Shown piece after piece: positions 15,996 to 23,949 of a DNA stretch of 57,483 nt. The first letter of the stretch is position 1, and each line of letters begins with the position of its first letter. The notes under the pieces were generated by a model that saw only the letters and a list, made by a program, of their open reading frames with translations, searched no databases and was not told the origin of the DNA. The DNA is taken from assembly GCA_964513845.1 (NCBI GenBank), contig CAZENT010000006.1, positions 1 to 57,483 of the forward strand. The letters are read 5' to 3'. Source of the stretch: an uncultured Pseudomonadales bacterium (GTDB lineage: Bacteria; Patescibacteriota; Microgenomatia; UBA1400; MFAQ01). Both the position numbers and the translations under genes were made by a program.

Positions 15996-16351
15996 CCCCA
16001 AACCCCAAGCCCGCTCGAAAAAGCGGGTTTTTCATATATACTCGGCATTTTTTCCAAAAAAAATGCCCCCAATTAAGGGGGCTCTGGAATGTGGGGTTTT
16101 ACCCACATCATCAATTCGGGCGAAGAGACGCCCGAAGCAAAAGCAAAAGAAAACTTCGGTCCCAATTCATTGGGCAAATCCTTTCATATTTTCAAGCCGG
16201 TAGGGCTGCATCCTACCCAACTTTCATACATTTTGCTTTTTTTATCTTCTCTCTTGCGCGCCACGCGCATGTGGGACAAAGGAGAAGGACGCTAACGTTC
16301 TACCTTTCTGAACGGTATAGGTAGTATATCAATTCATTATAGGTTTGTCAA

Positions 16352-16669
16352 CTACTGCCAGACCACCCATGTTTTACCGATAAAAATTTTCTTGAATGGC
16401 TGACAGCTATAAAATGTCACTACCATCACCGTTCTCGGTTTCAGTTTCACGATTGTCTGACCAGAAAATATTTGACCCACAACCTCTGGTTCGTGGCCCA
16501 AATATTCCACCCTAGTCTTTCCAAACATAGAATTCGGCACAACAAACAGGCCTTTTTTGGGTCGAAAAAATTTGTTAACAGGTACCGAGTCAACCAAGGC
16601 CATCAAATATTTTTCCAGCGGCATATCACTATCAATTTTGACAATCTCAAAATTTAAGGGTTCTGACAT
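16352..16669 (-). CDS. Small hypothetical protein
   Basis: Start placed at ATG 16669 behind SD GGAGG (track ORF 16352-16720). Confidence 0.6.
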   Translation of the reverse strand: MSEPLNFEIVKIDSDMPLEKYLMALVDSVPVNKFFRPKKGLFVVPNSMFGKTRVEYLGHEPEVVGQIFSGQTIVKLKPRTVMVVTFYSCQPFKKIFIGKTWVVWQ

Positions 16670-17177: not shown

Positions 17178-17241
17178 TTTGATCTGCCCACGCATAGATC
17201 TTACCCTGTCCAAGTAATAAGTTCTATATGGGCAGGTCAAA
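17178..17241. repeat. 64-bp terminal hairpin B (second copy 19593-19656)
   Basis: TTTGATCTGCCCA...TGGGCAGGTCAAA long imperfect hairpin; the two copies are nearly identical and each sits at the distal end of a cassette array. Confidence 0.85.
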
Positions 17242-17329
17242 AGAAATGACCTGTATTCTTTGGATACCCAAAACGGAATGATAAAAGAAATCTTTGGGAG
17301 GGTGTAGACACACCCTCCCAAAACAAGAA

Positions 17330-17890
17330 CTACCGCATCCGACAACTCACTACGGCATCTTCGAAAGATACGAAAGGCTCTTCGTAGTGAGAAGCATGGC
17401 GGCGAAGTGCCGTCTGCGCTTCTTCCCACGATGGTGCTGATCCCTTGCGGACAAAAACATAGGTTTCCCAATCGGGATTTCCATTTGTCCACAGCGCCAT
17501 TACCACAACATTCTCACCTTCGGGGAGATGGTACACTCCATCATCCCCCTGGCAACGGGGTGGATAGGTGAAACTTTCTTCACCTTCCAAATACTTGATT
17601 TTCGTTAATGGCCAGCCCAGCGTTCGGGCAAGCCGCCGAACGGGATTTGTGTCGTTTTCAATTAACGGCATCCGCAACACCTTATTCGGAGTGATGCGAT
17701 AAGCGCGCCCGGCCACAATTGGCCATACCCCCATGACCATTCCCGTGGAGTTGTACTCCACAATGGTGCCCTTGGTTGAAAATTCAGGATCAGGATACAC
17801 TATCATCCTTGTCCCTGATAAGCCCCGACGAATTACTTTTGATCCGTCAGACACCAATTCATCAAAGGTTTTGTCCAAGAAAATAGCCAT
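17330..17890 (-). CDS. Cassette 1 hypothetical protein (186 aa)
   Basis: ORF with SD AAGGAGG inside the leader hairpin; stop abuts the trailer. Confidence 0.75.
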   Translation of the reverse strand: MAIFLDKTFDELVSDGSKVIRRGLSGTRMIVYPDPEFSTKGTIVEYNSTGMVMGVWPIVAGRAYRITPNKVLRMPLIENDTNPVRRLARTLGWPLTKIKYLEGEESFTYPPRCQGDDGVYHLPEGENVVVMALWTNGNPDWETYVFVRKGSAPSWEEAQTALRRHASHYEEPFVSFEDAVVSCRMR

Positions 17891-18190
17891 TTTTGTCCTC
17901 CTTATGGACAGCTCCGCCGTTAAACGACGGAGAAGAAGAAAATAAGATTCTGCTCAAGCTTGCGCCAAAGCAGTTTTGGGCATACCAGCCCGTTTTGAGT
18001 ATCCAAACTCATATATTGTCATTGCGATCCGCCTTTGGTGGAGAAGCAATCCCCGACATGCGGAGGTTACCTCGACCTTTCGGCTTCACAATGGACAAAT
18101 ATATATTTTAAATCTGGATACCCAAAACAGAATGATAAAGAAATGATGTGGGGGGGGGGTAAAAAAACGCCCCCCCCCAAAAAAAATCTC

Positions 18191-18343
18191 TCACAAGTTC
18201 TTTTTTCTCTTGATAACAATCAAGAGAAATGCAAAAAAGAAACCTGCAACGATCAATCCGAGCTTTACGAGCTCGGATTCAACGATAAACGTGCCCAACA
18301 AACAGGCACATCCTACCACAAATACAATTTTAAACCAGATCAT
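18191..18343 (-). CDS. Cassette 2 small two-TM protein (50 aa)
   Basis: MIWFKIVFVVGCACLLGTFIVESELVKLGLIVAGFFFAFLLIVIKRKKNL; ATG 18343 at the same distance from the leader SD as other cassettes. Confidence 0.65.
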   Translation of the reverse strand: MIWFKIVFVVGCACLLGTFIVESELVKLGLIVAGFFFAFLLIVIKRKKNL

Positions 18344-18569
18344 TATTGCCCTCCTTTGGGGCCACTCCGCCGTGAATGCGACGGAGATTAAATCAACACT
18401 CTGCTCCAGCAATTGCCTTTGGCAGTTTGGGGCATATCAGCCCGTTTTGAGTATCCAAATTATTAAATTTCAAAGTTCAAACTTTCTTCGAATCGCACCA
18501 CCGCCAACAAATTTCACCTCACCAAAAAAATCGCCAAACTAGCGACAAAAAATATAGGGAAATGGAAAT

Positions 18570-18699
18570 GAATTACTGTTTGGACAGGTAATTCGGTAAC
18601 ACCTCTTGGAAGTGGTGCGACTCGAATTTGAAAGTTCTTGGCAATCGATTGATTGTCAACTATAGCCGATAGTATATCACAATATTATAGGTTTGTCAA
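18570..18699 (-). promoter_or_regulatory. Array header A: promoter TTGACA-17-TATACT, 53-bp conserved leader and GAATTAC hairpin (second copy 22807-22976)
   Basis: 18607-18659 versus 22884-22936 differ at 4 of 53 positions; hairpin GAATTAC...TTGGACAG-GTAATTC present in both. Confidence 0.75.
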
Positions 18700-18710
18700 C
18701 TTGAGGGATT

Positions 18711-19331
18711 TTATCCAATCTCAACCAACTTGACGTTTTGGACAATGACGCTTTTTACAGTCAACCAGCTTACGTTTTTGTGCATTTTTGGGCTAGGCTG
18801 ATCCTCCGCGTCATCAAAATACACCAACGATTTTAAAACATGAAGCAAATTGTATTCCTGATCACTGTATTTTTTCTTCATAAATCCAAAAATATCAGGC
18901 AAAGAAAACTCCTCCATAATGAAAAAAAGGTCAATGAAGTCTTTCTTAGATCCTCTTGCTGAAATAGTAATTAATTTTGTACAAGCAACATCCTGAATCG
19001 AAGATATTTTTATCCCATCCAGTATCTGTGGTTCTTCAAGCAATCTATACGGGTAATAGAGAAACTGTAATTTCACATTGTCCACAAAACAATTGAGAGT
19101 TCCAGAGTCCATTGACGCTTCTGTCAGATGAAGTTCTTTTTTCAATATTTGTAGTAAGTTTTCCGGTTCAAACTCTTCCTGGGTAAAAAAATCTAAATCT
19201 ACTGATTCACGATGACCCAAATGAAGCGCCAAGGCCGTTCCTCCAGACAAGTAAAAATTTCCAGGCAAACCAATCTTTGTCAGTTTGTCAAATAGAGCTT
19301 TTGTTCCCGGTGCAAGTGTTTCTGTGTGCAT
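18711..19331 (-). CDS. AbiEii/AbiGii-family nucleotidyltransferase toxin
   Basis: FYLSGGTALALHLGHRESVDLDFF and KKDFIDLFFI motifs. Confidence 0.9.
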   Translation of the reverse strand: MHTETLAPGTKALFDKLTKIGLPGNFYLSGGTALALHLGHRESVDLDFFTQEEFEPENLLQILKKELHLTEASMDSGTLNCFVDNVKLQFLYYPYRLLEEPQILDGIKISSIQDVACTKLITISARGSKKDFIDLFFIMEEFSLPDIFGFMKKKYSDQEYNLLHVLKSLVYFDDAEDQPSPKMHKNVSWLTVKSVIVQNVKLVEIG

Positions 19332-19332
19332 A

Positions 19333-19554
19333 TTAAAAGTATAACCGCCAAAAATTACGCGATTTCGGACTCATTTTTTTTGATAAATTTTTTTTCAGTT
19401 CCTGTTTAGATACTTTTCCGGTAAGCCACTTCACAGCCCTTGCATTTCCCTTTTCCAAAATAGTATTGGAAATATAATTTTTATGTTTTGCCATACTCAA
19501 ATCTCTCAAATCATCGCCCCAAAAATACTTAGAGATAAACCTAGGTATTATCAT
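19333..19554 (-). CDS. Small cognate antitoxin (DUF6922-like)
   Basis: YFWGDD...YISNTILEKG...VKWL...SRNFWRLYF; 1 bp upstream of the AbiEii gene. Confidence 0.75.
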   Translation of the reverse strand: MIIPRFISKYFWGDDLRDLSMAKHKNYISNTILEKGNARAVKWLTGKVSKQELKKNLSKKMSPKSRNFWRLYF

Positions 19555-19773
19555 TACCTCTATTTTACCTCAAAACAAGACTAACAGCTTCCTTTGATCT
19601 GCCCACGCATAGACCTTACCCTGTCCAAGTAATAAGTTCTATATGGGCAGGTCAAAAGAAACGACCTGTTTTTTATGGATACCCAAAACGGAATGATAAA
19701 TATGTAGGGAGAGAGGAAGCTAGACAGGCAACCTCTCTCCCACAAGACAATCAGGGGGGGGTGATGGAAAAAT

Positions 19774-20085
19774 CTACCACGAGCCTCTTGATGTGCCGTG
19801 TGCCGGCACCGGCTCGGTGTGAGCCAGCACCGCACAACACTTTTTGCTGGGGACCTCAATGGTCGTCCAGCTCTGACTCTCAATCATTCCTTCCGGAACG
19901 ACCGAGTCCCACGAGTATCGGACGATAACTTGCCCGTCCGATACGGAAACACAGTGGAAATCTCGGGAAACTTCCCATTTCCCGAATTTTCTGGCGAGAT
20001 CAATCTCGCCCATCGCCACCATCTCCGCCATTTTGACGGCGGTGGCACCAAATACGAACTCGATCATTTCAACAAATTCATTCAT
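19774..20085 (-). CDS. Cassette 3 hypothetical protein (103 aa)
   Basis: ATG directly after the leader SD hairpin. Confidence 0.65.
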   Translation of the reverse strand: MNEFVEMIEFVFGATAVKMAEMVAMGEIDLARKFGKWEVSRDFHCVSVSDGQVIVRYSWDSVVPEGMIESQSWTTIEVPSKKCCAVLAHTEPVPAHGTSRGSW

Positions 20086-20308
20086 CTTTGCCCTCCTTTA
20101 GGGCCACTCCGCCGTGAATGCGACGGAGAAATAAATCAAACTTCTGCCTCAGGCAATTGCCTTAGCAGGTAATTAACACGGGTGATAAGTATCAACCCGT
20201 TTTGAGTATCCAAACTCATATATATTGTTAATCTGGATACCCAAAACGGAATGATAAAAAAATGTAGGGAGAGAGGAAGCCAGACAGGCAACCTCTCTCC
20301 CACAAGAC

Positions 20309-20542
20309 TTACTTCCAGGTCCACCCGGGCTCAATGGCCCTGATGGCCTGGATGGCCTCATCTTCAATTTCCTTCTTGGTTTCCCAAGAAGGAGACGCAC
20401 CACGCATTCTCACTATGGTGTGAGTTGTGTCTGGACCATCGTGGATAATTGTGTGAAAATACGATAAGCCCAATTCTTGGGCCTTGTTGACTATTTGTTC
20501 GATGGGGTGATTTTCCCCACACCTTGCTGTAAAAATAATCAC
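20309..20542 (-). CDS. Cassette 4 hypothetical protein (77 aa)
   Basis: GTG 20542 after AAAGGAGG; stop abuts the trailer GTCTTGTG. Confidence 0.65.
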   Translation of the reverse strand: MIIFTARCGENHPIEQIVNKAQELGLSYFHTIIHDGPDTTHTIVRMRGASPSWETKKEIEDEAIQAIRAIEPGWTWK

Positions 20543-20750
20543 TGTGTCCTCCTTTGGACAGCTCCGCCGTGGAACGACGGAGAAAAAAGAAAAAGATTCT
20601 GCCTCGGCAATTGCCAAAGCAGTTTTGGGCATACCAGCCCGTTTTGAGTATCCAAACTCATATATATTTTTAATCTGGATACCCAAAACGGAATGATAAA
20701 AAATGTGAGGAGGGGGAAATGTCAAGACAGCCAATCCCCCTCCCACAAGA

Positions 20751-21227
20751 CTAAGAGTACTTTATTTTTGCCTCTTCCATCCTTCGGAAGAGTTCCCTAA
20801 CCGCATCAGCCTGGTTCGGGTTTAACCCAATAAATACCTGCTCTTTTAATATTTCAAAAAAGAACAAGCTTTCTTTTTTTGTTGGCCATCCATTCTCGCC
20901 GATATCGACGAGTAGTTCCAACACTGAGACAACGGGGATCGTTGTCATGAATGGATTAATTAGGCATCCACGCTCTAGATCAAAGCCGTTGAGCCCTAGA
21001 TATTTCCACCCATCTGCAACTTTCCAAAGTTTTTCGCCCAGAATTTTCTCTGGGTTGTCCCTATGCCAATAAAAAGTTGGCAACTCAGGATCCATTGGGT
21101 CTGTGAAGACCCCAAGAGCATACTCGCCCTTATATTGGGCGATGCGGAACCTAGGAAAAACACTTTCCCTCAGTTCTGGGGGCAAACAATCAAATACACC
21201 CCTTTTCAAAAATTTTATTTTCATCAT
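20751..21227 (-). CDS. Cassette 5 hypothetical protein (158 aa)
   Basis: ATG after the leader SD; stop abuts the trailer. Confidence 0.75.
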   Translation of the reverse strand: MMKIKFLKRGVFDCLPPELRESVFPRFRIAQYKGEYALGVFTDPMDPELPTFYWHRDNPEKILGEKLWKVADGWKYLGLNGFDLERGCLINPFMTTIPVVSVLELLVDIGENGWPTKKESLFFFEILKEQVFIGLNPNQADAVRELFRRMEEAKIKYS

Positions 21228-21553
21228 TGCCCTCCTTTAGGGCCACTCCGCCGTGAAATCGGACGGAGAAAAAGATAAAACTTCTGCCTCAGGCAATTGC
21301 CTTTGGCAGTTTTGGGCATACCAGCCCGTTTTGAGTATCCAAACTCATATATATTTTTAATCTGGATACCCAAAACGGAATGATAAAAAATGTTGGAAGG
21401 GGGAAATGACAAGACTGCCAATCCCCCTTCCACAAGACTGATTGTTATTTTCCACTCATTTGAATGAAAAAATTACAGGTTATCAACCTAACTTTTTTAA
21501 AGAGAAGTCACCTCTCTAGCGCCAATCCTCTTTTTACCCGCCTTGCGGCGAGT

Positions 21554-22294
21554 TTAATCGAAAAGATTGGCTTCCTCCTCAAGCCGTGCTTTCACGGACT
21601 TGAGGTTGGACAAATCATACCGGCATTCACTTTCAGCCGGTAAAGACGACTGGTCAACAATCGACCCGTCCATAATACTCACCTCGGGGGCTTCCGCCTC
21701 CGGGATGACGAACATGTCCTGCCGGTGTTCATCCGGCATGTCGGACGAGTAAACCTCCTCGTCCAAATAGGCCGCCGCTTCCCAGTAGGACAAGCCTACT
21801 TGGAAAGCGCTCAGCCGATCGCTTTGTCCCTCGAGGACATAAGCGAAGTGATTTTTGAACTCCACGAGGAGCTTGTGCCCCTCGCGTGCTGCACTTACGG
21901 CCCCCCAATTCGACCGGCAGCCAACTCGCTGCTTTTCGATGGTCGCTCCCGCCCTGAAGATCAGGACGGACCAGGGGGTCTTGACAGGGCGCAGTGCCCC
22001 GGTTCCTTGCATCCAGGGGAAACCCTGAATGCCGATTATCCAGGTGCGCTCAGCCAAGGACGGGTGCACGCGTTCGTACACCTCGACAAACCCTTCGGAG
22101 GACTGGGCCCGGTAGCCCTTCAGGGGGATGATGATGTCATACCCTCTATTGAACAGCCTTTCACCAAAATGGGCCAGAGGGCCCAGGTCTGCGCCGAAGC
22201 GCAGAACGACACCCTGTCCAGCGACTCTCGTCGCCGAAACAGAGTATACCCGCAGTTCGCGGGTGAATGTGTCGATCAAAAGATGCTTTGCCAT
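21554..22294 (-). CDS. Cassette 6 hypothetical protein (246 aa, visibly GC-rich)
   Basis: ATG after the leader SD; acidic C-terminus; own small terminator hairpin near 21535-21553. Confidence 0.75.
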   Translation of the reverse strand: MAKHLLIDTFTRELRVYSVSATRVAGQGVVLRFGADLGPLAHFGERLFNRGYDIIIPLKGYRAQSSEGFVEVYERVHPSLAERTWIIGIQGFPWMQGTGALRPVKTPWSVLIFRAGATIEKQRVGCRSNWGAVSAAREGHKLLVEFKNHFAYVLEGQSDRLSAFQVGLSYWEAAAYLDEEVYSSDMPDEHRQDMFVIPEAEAPEVSIMDGSIVDQSSLPAESECRYDLSNLKSVKARLEEEANLFD

Positions 22295-22429
22295 TTTAAT
22301 TGCCCTCCTTTAGGGCCACTCCGCCGTGAATGCGACGGAGAGATAGAAATCAAACTCCTGCCTCGAGCAAACGCCTTTGGCAGGGAAACTAACACGGGTG
22401 ATACATATCAACCCGTTTTGAGTATCCAG

Positions 22430-22790
22430 AATAACCTCTTCCTCATAAGCATTCCCGAGTAATCTCGGTCTCCGTTAACAGCAGTAAACCATGTTTACCT
22501 TGCGGATTTTACGAGGAAGATTATTAATGTTAAGGTCCCAGCATTCTTCGGGTCGCGCCACTACCTTCCTCGGAAAACCGAGAAAGCTAGTGTGTCTTGT
22601 AGCTTTTATCCCCGATTTACTCGTCGTATCCCCGTCAACCGAGGGCGATCTATAAAGAAGTAGATAAAAGTACTGGTTCTGCTCATCCTCACTACCGAAG
22701 CTATCTCGGCTAGAAGACTCACAGAGTTAATTAAACGTCTTATGCCGAAGCAGCGTTTAACTCCAGACTGCACACAGGAAACATATGAAA
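22430..22790 (-). ncRNA. Putative large structured non-coding RNA between header A and cassette 6
   Basis: No ORF in the track; many nested hairpins including UUCG- and GCAA-capped stems; lies downstream of the 22948-22976 promoter. Confidence 0.4.
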
Positions 22791-23142
22791 ATTGGACAAG
22801 TTTTGTGAATTACTTTTTGGACAGGTAATTCAAGTACACCTATGGAAATTTTTAACGCATTCGCGTTTGGACAGTTTCCTTATTGGCAGTGGTGCGACTC
22901 GAATTTGAATGTTCTTGGCAATCGTCTGATTGTCAATGATAAGCAACAGTATAACACAATGTTATGGGTTTGTCAAGTAGTGTTTACAACTTGGCTCTGG
23001 GTTCGTGTTACCTAAATGTGCTTATTACAGGTATATATTACCACATCTTATAGTATTTGTCAATCCCTATTAACATCCACAAACACATCGCTATCCGTCA
23101 ACATCCCTTGACACTCCTCTAGTTTCCCTATACCATCTATAT

Positions 23143-23949
23143 ATGCCCACTCCAAACAATTTACAAAACCTCGGTCTTTCCACAGATCAAACCGCCATCT
23201 ACCTCACCCTTCTCAACTCAGGACCACAGTCCGCCATCTCCCTAGCCAAGCTTTCCGGCATCAAACGCACCTACATCTACCATCTCTGTAAAGAGCTCGA
23301 AAAAGAAGGACACATCAAGCTCACCCAGAAAGGTCGCACTACCTACTTCTCCGCTCAATCACCAGATCTTCTCCTTGCCAAAGCCCAAGAGAAAAAAGCT
23401 CAAGCCGAAACCGCTCTGCTCACACTCCAGTCAATTCTCCCAGAGCTCCAGTCCAAGTACCGCCTCACCGACATCAAGCCTGTTGTGAGTTACTTCGAAG
23501 GTCTTGAGGGTATCAAAAAGATGTACCAAGACATCATCAAAACTGGCCAAGATGATCTTCTTTTTCGCTCAATTCACGATGAAAGCAATCCTCTGGCAGC
23601 CACGGTCCTCTACAAACACATGGAGGAGCGCACCAAAGCCGGTATCCGCACCAAGGCCATAACCCCTTTTGTCGAGGTAGGTATTCAAAACTACCTCCAT
23701 CACGATAAAGAGCACCTCTTTGAACGCCATTTCACCCAAAACCCTAAATATTTGTTCCCCTGTCAGATCATTGTTTACGGTACCAAAGTGGCTATTACCG
23801 ATTTCCAAACACTCATTACCACCACACTCGACAACCTACTCATTAGCCAAACATTTAGCCAGCTCTTTGACATTCTCTGGGAAGCCACTCAAAACGAACA
23901 CGACGACCTCATCAGAAAAATTAGCTCAAACCCTCCAAAGACTAATTAA
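23143..23949 (+). CDS. TrmB-family transcriptional regulator
   Basis: N-terminal wHTH (LGLSTDQTAIYLTLL...LAKLSGIKRTYIY), VSYFEGLEGIK, C-terminal PLD-like domain; promoter TTGACA-17-TACCAT 6 nt before ATG. Confidence 0.9.
   Translation: MPTPNNLQNLGLSTDQTAIYLTLLNSGPQSAISLAKLSGIKRTYIYHLCKELEKEGHIKLTQKGRTTYFSAQSPDLLLAKAQEKKAQAETALLTLQSILPELQSKYRLTDIKPVVSYFEGLEGIKKMYQDIIKTGQDDLLFRSIHDESNPLAATVLYKHMEERTKAGIRTKAITPFVEVGIQNYLHHDKEHLFERHFTQNPKYLFPCQIIVYGTKVAITDFQTLITTTLDNLLISQTFSQLFDILWEATQNEHDDLIRKISSNPPKTN

Follow-up and report, generated by a model that had tools for sequence, protein, structure and literature searches.

The window, by which the whole 57,483-nt stretch of DNA analysed here is meant, carries a larger and a smaller array of gene cassettes on its minus strand. 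At the head of the larger array, an 850-nt stretch with no conserved ORF (23142-22295, minus strand) separates a divergent TrmB-family gene from the first cassette gene, whose start codon is at 22294. Within this stretch, two strong promoters in tandem are followed by a leader, and the leader by the first unit of the integron-like array. The element is single-copy in the genome (0.92 Mb, 98.6% complete), whose nearest named relative is a Candidatus Collierbacteria MAG. An earlier note, made by reading the letters, had flagged about 360 nt of it (22430-22790) as a probable structured non-coding RNA.

Thirteen distinct homologous heads were recovered from MAGs and metagenomes, nearly all adjoining a TrmB-like regulator gene of the same kind. 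When related genomes were searched at the DNA level, this architecture turned up in two species representatives, G021 and G005, the latter running off its contig end; a conserved 31-mer pattern found three metagenome contigs, and a pattern scan of genome contigs two loci. The regulator yielded 22 protein homologues, and exact look-ups of twelve of these gave the contigs from which most heads derive. The heads are grouped into clade I (the window, L023, L024, L015, L026, L031 and L005) and clade II (L002, L013, L018, L020, L021, L022 and L032). All contigs that reach far enough upstream show a leader of 600-950 nt without a conserved ORF, extending from tandem promoters to the first TGGATACTCAAAACGG repeat. 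The features of the locus are the following.

23143..23949, plus strand: TrmB-family winged-helix regulator gene (Pfam PF01978, E 3.9e-10), divergent and a conserved neighbour of the heads
23063-23035, minus strand: promoter P1 (TTGACA-17-TAATAT), a sequence match kept in all full heads and followed by the conserved AAGCACRTTTAGRTAACAC
22976-22948, minus strand: promoter P2 (TTGACA-17-TGTTATACT, TATACT, with an extended -10 TG), an 11/12 match
22937-22915, minus strand: hairpin H1 (UUGACAAUC-AGAC-GAUUGCCAA) with a conserved A.C mismatch, from the minimum free energy (MFE) fold
22911-22885, minus strand: 5′ strand of the long-range helix (CAUUCAAAUUCGAGUCGCACCACUGCC), from the MFE and the clade II consensus fold
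22776..22880, minus strand: 5′ domain, closed by GGAAAC/GUUUCC (helices 5-8)
22590..22775, minus strand: central multibranch domain, closed by GUCU/AGAC (helices 9-14), 14 pairs with compensatory changes
22585-22566, minus strand: hairpin UUUCUCGG-UUUU-CCGAGGAA inside the long-range helix (helix 15), 4 compensatory pairs, 100% paired
22565-22542, minus strand: 3′ strand of the long-range helix (GGUAGUGGCGCGACCCGAAGAAUG), from the MFE and the clade II consensus fold
22520..22536, minus strand: conserved motif ACCUUAACAUUAAUAAU (ACUUUGACAAUUUAAUA in most heads), at a conserved position after the long-range helix
22522-22434, minus strand: three-way junction of 89 nt, 96.8% paired, abutting the first cassette
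22412..22428, minus strand: first cassette's right boundary repeat (UGGAUACUCAAAACGGG), where the head ends on its 3′ side; identity to L024 stops just after it
18700-18457, minus strand: minimal head of the small array, with a P2-type promoter, H1, the long-range helix and the CUGUCCAA hairpin

The tandem promoters that had been placed upstream by eye are indeed found, as two consensus sigma-70 sites on the minus strand. Both P1 and P2 are kept across all homologous heads, and transcription from P2 is predicted to start at about 22941. The leader region holds six promoter-like sites, compared with 1.4 expected from shuffled sequences. Promoters of the P2 type also stand at 18699-18671, where one heads the small array, and at 16351-16323, ahead of an orphan tract. 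The latter promoter, the third of its type (TTGACA-17-TATACT), reads into 262 nt without a credible ORF (16055-16355, minus strand), folded with a z-score of -4.15 and ending in a terminator, GCCCCCUUAAUUGGGGGC followed by eight U. With no Rfam match and almost no homologues in the family, this tract is a candidate stand-alone small RNA or emptied array head.

The cassettes themselves have no promoter-like sites on the coding strand within the arrays besides those of the heads. Downstream of each cassette ORF come GUCUUGU and then a GC-rich hairpin, with folding energies of -25 to -34 kcal/mol (17276-21440 in the window). Three internal cassette ends of the larger array carry a tract of six to seven U, and the other three ends, namely the terminal cassette of each array and the internal cassette of the small array, have interrupted U tracts. 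In clade II cassettes, GUCUUAU takes the place of GUCUUGU. The 16-bp inverted repeat at the cassette boundaries (for example 21320-21395) contains a single G.U (G.T) on the transcribed strand in all clade I copies, equivalent to A.C on the other strand; the clade II repeat is perfect, with spacers of 60-120 nt that often hold an inserted hairpin element.

The cargo does not consist of orphan genes alone. A cassette product of L024 (94-405) bears a Cas_csx3 domain, and inspection by eye suggests a DHH-type phosphoesterase (NFDHH motif) in the first cassette of both L002 and L013, a hint that some cargo serves nucleotide signalling or defence. The interval that separates the large array's tail from the small array's head (18711-19554) holds an AbiEii-type toxin gene (PF08843, E 1.3e-14) and, upstream of it, one for a small DUF6922 protein.

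This organization resembles that of integrons, in that head promoters read into promoter-less cassettes, repeated sites bound the array, and cassette content differs exactly at the head junction, as seen in L024. The head of L024, which comes from another sample, matches that of the window at 100% identity along about 600 nt. Just past TGGATACTCAAAACGGGTTGATA the two sequences part, L024 continuing with an unrelated cassette. The leader thus ends at a cassette-exchange point. Three differences set the locus apart from integrons. No intI lies beside the array head, where the divergent gene is of the TrmB type, and tyrosine recombinases are found elsewhere. The junctions have the form CCGTTTTGGGTATCCA-21 nt-TGGATACTCAAAACGG and, by inspection, contain no attC-type GTTRRRY/RYYYAAC boxes. 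Finally, about 510 nt of structured RNA separate promoter and first cassette, an arrangement that integrons do not have. No recombinase gene occurs near the locus; tyrosine recombinase domains (PF00589) are encoded on other contigs, at C3:77974 and C2:39793-41580. At the latter site the domain is split in two pieces within one open frame of 733 aa, which may reflect an intein or a large insertion. The neighbours of the leader are the TrmB-like regulator and orphan cassette genes without a Pfam match.

The region had been described as free of ORFs, and no conserved ORF is present; the longest span 54-55 aa. A hidden small protein was considered and rejected, as ORFs of 55-72 aa shift their start codon and frame among homologues and are broken by indels. 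Folding is more stable than in shuffled controls. The flagged region (381 nt) has an MFE of -122.8 kcal/mol and a z-score of -4.03 (0 of 100 shuffles as good), and the full 531 nt, beginning where P2 is predicted to start transcription and ending at the first cassette repeat, reach -163.6 kcal/mol with a z-score of -4.96. Scanned with Rfam 15 at gathering thresholds, the whole window gives only four tRNAs, and a permissive scan of 22200-23200 gives only two matches, at chance level with E above 5. The reader of the letters had recognized none of the hallmarks of tmRNA, RNase P, 6S or group I/II introns, and the covariance-model scan against Rfam likewise yields no credible match in the region. 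OLE, GOLLD, ROOL, HEARO, EAR and riboswitches were also considered as known families, and none reaches its Rfam threshold. The RNase P RNA of the genome is found on another contig (C1:63130-63438). The search for literature on Collierbacteria or Patescibacteria cassette arrays, or on this leader RNA, found no relevant prior description.

All heads share a scaffold composed of H1, the long-range helix, a 5′ domain with three CUGUCC(A) motifs, and the motif that follows the helix. Between clades, H1 changes from CAAUC/GAUUG to CAACU/AGUUG, which amounts to two compensatory pairs, and its A.C mismatch is replaced by A-U in L031 and L032. The long-range helix comprises 19-21 bp formed by strands 100-400 nt apart and is present in the single-sequence MFE; in the consensus fold of clade II it is predicted with 21 bp. 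Over 10 distinct heads, including that of the small array, 90.5% of cells are paired in this helix, with compensatory changes at three pairs. In the 5′ domain, the CUGUCC(A) motifs occur at 22874-22867, 22824-22817 and 22799-22792 and are found in every head; the loop of hairpin GAAUUAC-CUGUCCAAAAA-GUAAUUC (22832-22806) displays one of them. The motif after the helix has the general form ACUUURACAAUUUAAUA. Judged from its sequence, it may be boxA-like, or it may supply the -35 box for a weak internal promoter (TTAACA-16-TAAAAT).

Two lineage-variable accessory domains are borne on this scaffold, a central domain of about 300 nt inside the long-range helix and the 89-nt three-way junction. The central domain is built from two hairpins (22762-22729 and 22725-22678) and a long arm (22673-22599). 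Its sequence is specific to clade I; in clade II the corresponding position holds a different domain, which shares little sequence with it. The three-way junction consists of a 12-bp P1, a P2 made of UCCG/CGGA and hairpin GGUAAAC-AUG-GUUUACU, and a P3 of CCGAG/CUCGG, with AAAAUCCGC and AACGGAGAC as invariant junction bases. It is missing from L015, L026, L031 and the small array, and L026 also lacks the first of the central hairpins. Other modules (TCGCCTT...CACGGCTCGA) substitute at the place of the three-way junction or hairpin in L026, L031 and L002.

Most stems picked out by eye in the flagged region are supported by compensatory changes: TTAAACG...CGTTTAA (22762-22729), CTCGG-TTTT-CCGAG (22585-22566) and the domain closed by TCTTCCTCGTAA/TTATGAGGAAGA (22520-22437), which corresponds to the three-way junction. 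A stem proposed as AGC-TTCG-GT exists, but is better drawn as GCCGAG/TTCGGT (22710-22694, the co-varying helix 11). Pairing of AAAGCTA with TAGCTTT is possible, but the consensus fold, backed by compensatory changes, chooses a competing arrangement in which AAAAGC pairs with the upstream GTACTTTT and CACTAGCTTTCTCGG with a downstream partner (helices 12 and 15). Consensus fold and single-sequence MFE disagree on the partners of CCACUGCC and GGUAGUG. The structure had also been said to be absent from the smaller array, which is true of the central domain and the three-way junction but not of the scaffold; the long-range helix of the small array pairs 18626-18612 with 18501-18487.

Covariation was assessed in alignments of only five to nine distinct, related sequences each, so that the comparisons with shuffles given here overstate significance and are not probabilities. 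The clade I alignment (five sequences, window positions 22517-22937) contains 128 pairs with 95.5% of cells paired. Compensatory changes affect 23 of these pairs, compared with 6.9 ± 2.1 in shuffles (none of the 500 reaches 23), and sliding the 3′ partners by one to three columns leaves 0-5 such pairs. For the three-way junction, nine sequences from both clades show compensatory changes at 17 of 31 pairs (9.2 ± 1.6 in shuffles, 2-5 when slid), as in the replacement of CCG/CGG by CCA/UGG in L021, and 30 columns are invariant. The clade II consensus has 83 pairs, 14 of them compensatory. Many conserved G.U pairs lie on the promoter-sense strand and would be A.C mismatches on the other, which indicates that the structure belongs to the transcript or to the same strand as single-stranded DNA.

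The distribution of the leader is narrow. It is restricted to a few genomes of the Collierbacteria family, and model R1, a covariance model of the three-way junction, has one match in the genome and, among 286 genomes of the order, matches only G000 and G021, in both cases at array heads alone. A phage or plasmid origin was rejected: blastn found no match in phage or plasmid collections, and the head pattern is absent from viral contigs. The sole viral-contig match to the boundary repeat falls inside a coding start and was discarded as chance. The leaders of L023 and L024 are 95-100% identical to that of the window, although their regulator proteins are only about 60% identical overall; the N-terminal part of the L024 regulator gene is still 82-97% identical. 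This pattern suggests a recombination breakpoint within or beyond the regulator gene, and with it an exchange of head plus array between lineages.

Together, the fold, the compensatory changes and the broken ORFs bear out a non-coding, structured and conserved element on the promoter-sense strand, and there is high confidence that the array head carries a real RNA element under selection. The tie to the cassette system proposed in the earlier note also holds, since every homologue is located at an array head. The element does not correspond to a self-contained RNA of 360 nt. The flagged region is real, but the structure reaches about 140 nt further 5′, to about 22941, and the flagged part comprises two accessory domains of a leader that measures about 510 nt and has part of its conserved core outside the flagged coordinates. 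These 360 nt are accessory expansions of a conserved head rather than its core, because the small array has a minimal head that looks functional without them, and the heads of L015, L026 and L031 also do without some of these domains; the core function cannot depend on sequences that are dispensable there. The leader RNA is most likely a cis-encoded structured 5′ leader on the minus strand, its predicted transcript running from about 22941 to 22429. Lacking an Rfam match, it is a candidate for a new family of large structured RNAs. It resembles OLE, GOLLD, ROOL and raiA in its length of hundreds of nucleotides, multibranch co-varying fold and accessory distribution, but differs in that it matches no covariance model and does not form an independent gene ending in a terminator of its own.

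The closest parallel for its action is found in the leaders of rRNA operons. In both cases, tandem P1/P2 promoters are followed by a helix of about 20 bp that joins segments 100-400 nt apart and brackets a structured RNA, with a U-rich CUUURACAA-like motif just past the helix. The host also encodes RNase III (rnc) and NusB, whose genes adjoin each other at C2:18187-18898. By analogy, the tandem promoters would transcribe the leader and continue into the promoter-less array, and the leader would act on its own transcript. The long-range helix would be a processing stem, probably for RNase III, and a cut there would set the central domain free or trim it. Together with the elements downstream of it, the scaffold would set how much transcription or stable mRNA reaches the cassettes, and the most plausible route is that polymerase is helped through the cassette terminators or that expression of the array is gated. 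Modulation specific to each lineage would fall to the central domain and the three-way junction, which may be modules that sense a signal or bind a protein. The reading as a processed leader that acts in cis, like those of rrn operons, is favoured on account of the missing cassette promoters and the terminator-like hairpins at the cassette ends. Taken whole, this mechanism is considered somewhat more probable than its negation.

The parallel has its limits. Unlike rRNA leaders, the helix brackets an accessory non-coding domain instead of rRNA, protein-coding cassettes follow, and the boxA-like motif deviates. The rrn leader of the genome has a canonical boxA (GCUCUUUAACAA / GCTCTTTAACAAG), which the head motif (ACCTTAACATTAAT in the window, ACTTTRACAATTTAAT in most homologues) matches only partially; the boxA-like motif is weak in the window (ACCUUAACA) and variable among heads. 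The resemblance to a canonical boxA is kept as a weak lead. RNAs for processive antitermination, such as put of HK022 and EAR of Bacillus eps operons, are similar in being structured cis leaders placed before a long unit with internal terminator-like hairpins. They differ from the present leader in sequence and structure (EAR is in Rfam and gives no match), and the leader is several times larger.

A more specific proposal is that the three-way junction, perhaps along with the central domain, acts as a riboswitch-like aptamer or protein-binding sensor that switches array expression, its junction bases forming the pocket. The 89-nt junction has the co-varying helices and invariant unpaired bases (AAAAUCCGC, AACGGAGAC) typical of riboswitches, and, where present, it always lies directly upstream of the first cassette. 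By inspection, the 3′ strand of P1 in clade II can alternatively pair with a downstream AUCC or UUUUGGAUA. Against this, neither an expression platform, be it a terminator or sequestration of an SD sequence, nor a coherent set of regulated genes is evident downstream: the orphan cassettes that follow identical heads are unrelated, unlike riboswitch regulons. The junction is also confined to this type of locus and absent from several heads. A widespread riboswitch was rejected on the matches of model R1, and the sensor reading is regarded as unlikely.

Action in trans is a further option. The leader, or a piece excised from it, might serve as a guide or scaffold for the capture, excision or organization of cassettes, in the manner of bridge and omega RNAs, or pair with the cassette trailers and the array tail. 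It is located exactly at the cassette-exchange junction, near which no recombinase gene is encoded. The head loop CUGUCCAA is complementary to loop UUGGACAG of the hairpin that closes both arrays (19593-19656 and 17178-17241), where UUGGACAG(G) is its exact complement in both clades. The match is likewise kept in L013, whose tail hairpin lies about 3900 nt beyond the start of the regulator gene, and in L015 (about 1094 nt beyond the same point), whose loop UUGGAUAG still pairs through a G.U. Two AYAAGAC motifs (22743-22737 and 22600-22594) are complementary to the GUCUU(G/A)U trailer found after every cassette ORF. On sequence grounds, these head, tail and trailer matches of 7-9 nt could be RNA-RNA contacts or protein-binding sites.

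Several observations weigh against a trans-acting RNA. The suggestion in the earlier note of a guide RNA finds no support: the leader has no complement of at least 8 nt to the boundary repeats or the 21-nt spacer, and its short complementary matches total 10, a count close to the 6.0 of shuffles. No partner protein was identified, matches of 7-8 nt could equally be protein sites, and most of the complementary motifs, being part of the scaffold, fall outside the flagged 360 nt. The IS110 bridge RNA and the omega RNAs of IscB/TnpB (HEARO) are comparable as structured non-coding RNAs at the end of a DNA-exchanging unit; however, they come with an adjacent recombinase or nuclease gene (IS110 DEDD, IscB, TnpB), which is absent here along with any Rfam match. 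The complementarity search covered guide-target pairing of at least 8 nt, and shorter bipartite guides would escape it. Action in trans is accordingly rated as distinctly unlikely. The same low standing is given to the stronger form in which the head RNA is the RNA component of an integrase-less cassette system and, once excised, pairs through its CUGUCCAA loops and AYAAGAC motifs with the tail loop and trailers to organize, license or guide capture and excision, or to regulate cassettes in trans.

It is improbable that the head works at the level of DNA, as an attI-like platform for recombination or regulation in which TTGACAA and CTGTCCAA boxes are protein sites or single-stranded DNA hairpins and the RNA fold is a by-product. 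TTGACAA-type boxes do recur, in P1, P2, H1 and the motif after the long-range helix, and a TGTCAA-N6-TTGACA palindrome overlaps the promoter of the regulator gene. Head and tail also bear inverted copies of TTACC(C)TGTCCAA, like terminal inverted repeats, and paired half-sites would co-vary too. However, more than 100 pairs co-vary in over a dozen unrelated local hairpins, including loops of the UUCG and GAAA types and strand-specific G.U pairs. Protein half-sites fail to explain such covariation; folded single-stranded DNA of the same strand could.

The least probable reading, that only the scaffold matters and the accessory domains are decaying, functionless remnants of inserted non-coding modules or dead cassettes, would account for their modular presence and absence, the replacement modules of L026, L031 and L002 and the little sequence shared by the central domains of clades I and II, but compensatory substitutions maintain the helices across lineages whose regulators are only 44-64% identical, and such upkeep speaks for selection on structure.

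The covariation is unusually clear for so few sequences. It is found in an array that is integron-like yet has neither an integrase nor attC sites, and in a host belonging to the ultra-small CPR bacteria, for which very little regulatory RNA has been recorded. The elements described offer targets for mutation: the long-range helix, the three-way junction, and the complementary head and tail loops of each array. If the cis-encoded leader controls read-through or processing of an array studded with terminators, it would show how one head can drive the expression of a whole library of orphan genes. A role in cassette exchange, if it has one, would instead amount to a new, RNA-dependent route of gene capture. 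Should the head RNA act in trans as a component of the cassette system, it would be an RNA-based counterpart of the attI/IntI platform of integrons.
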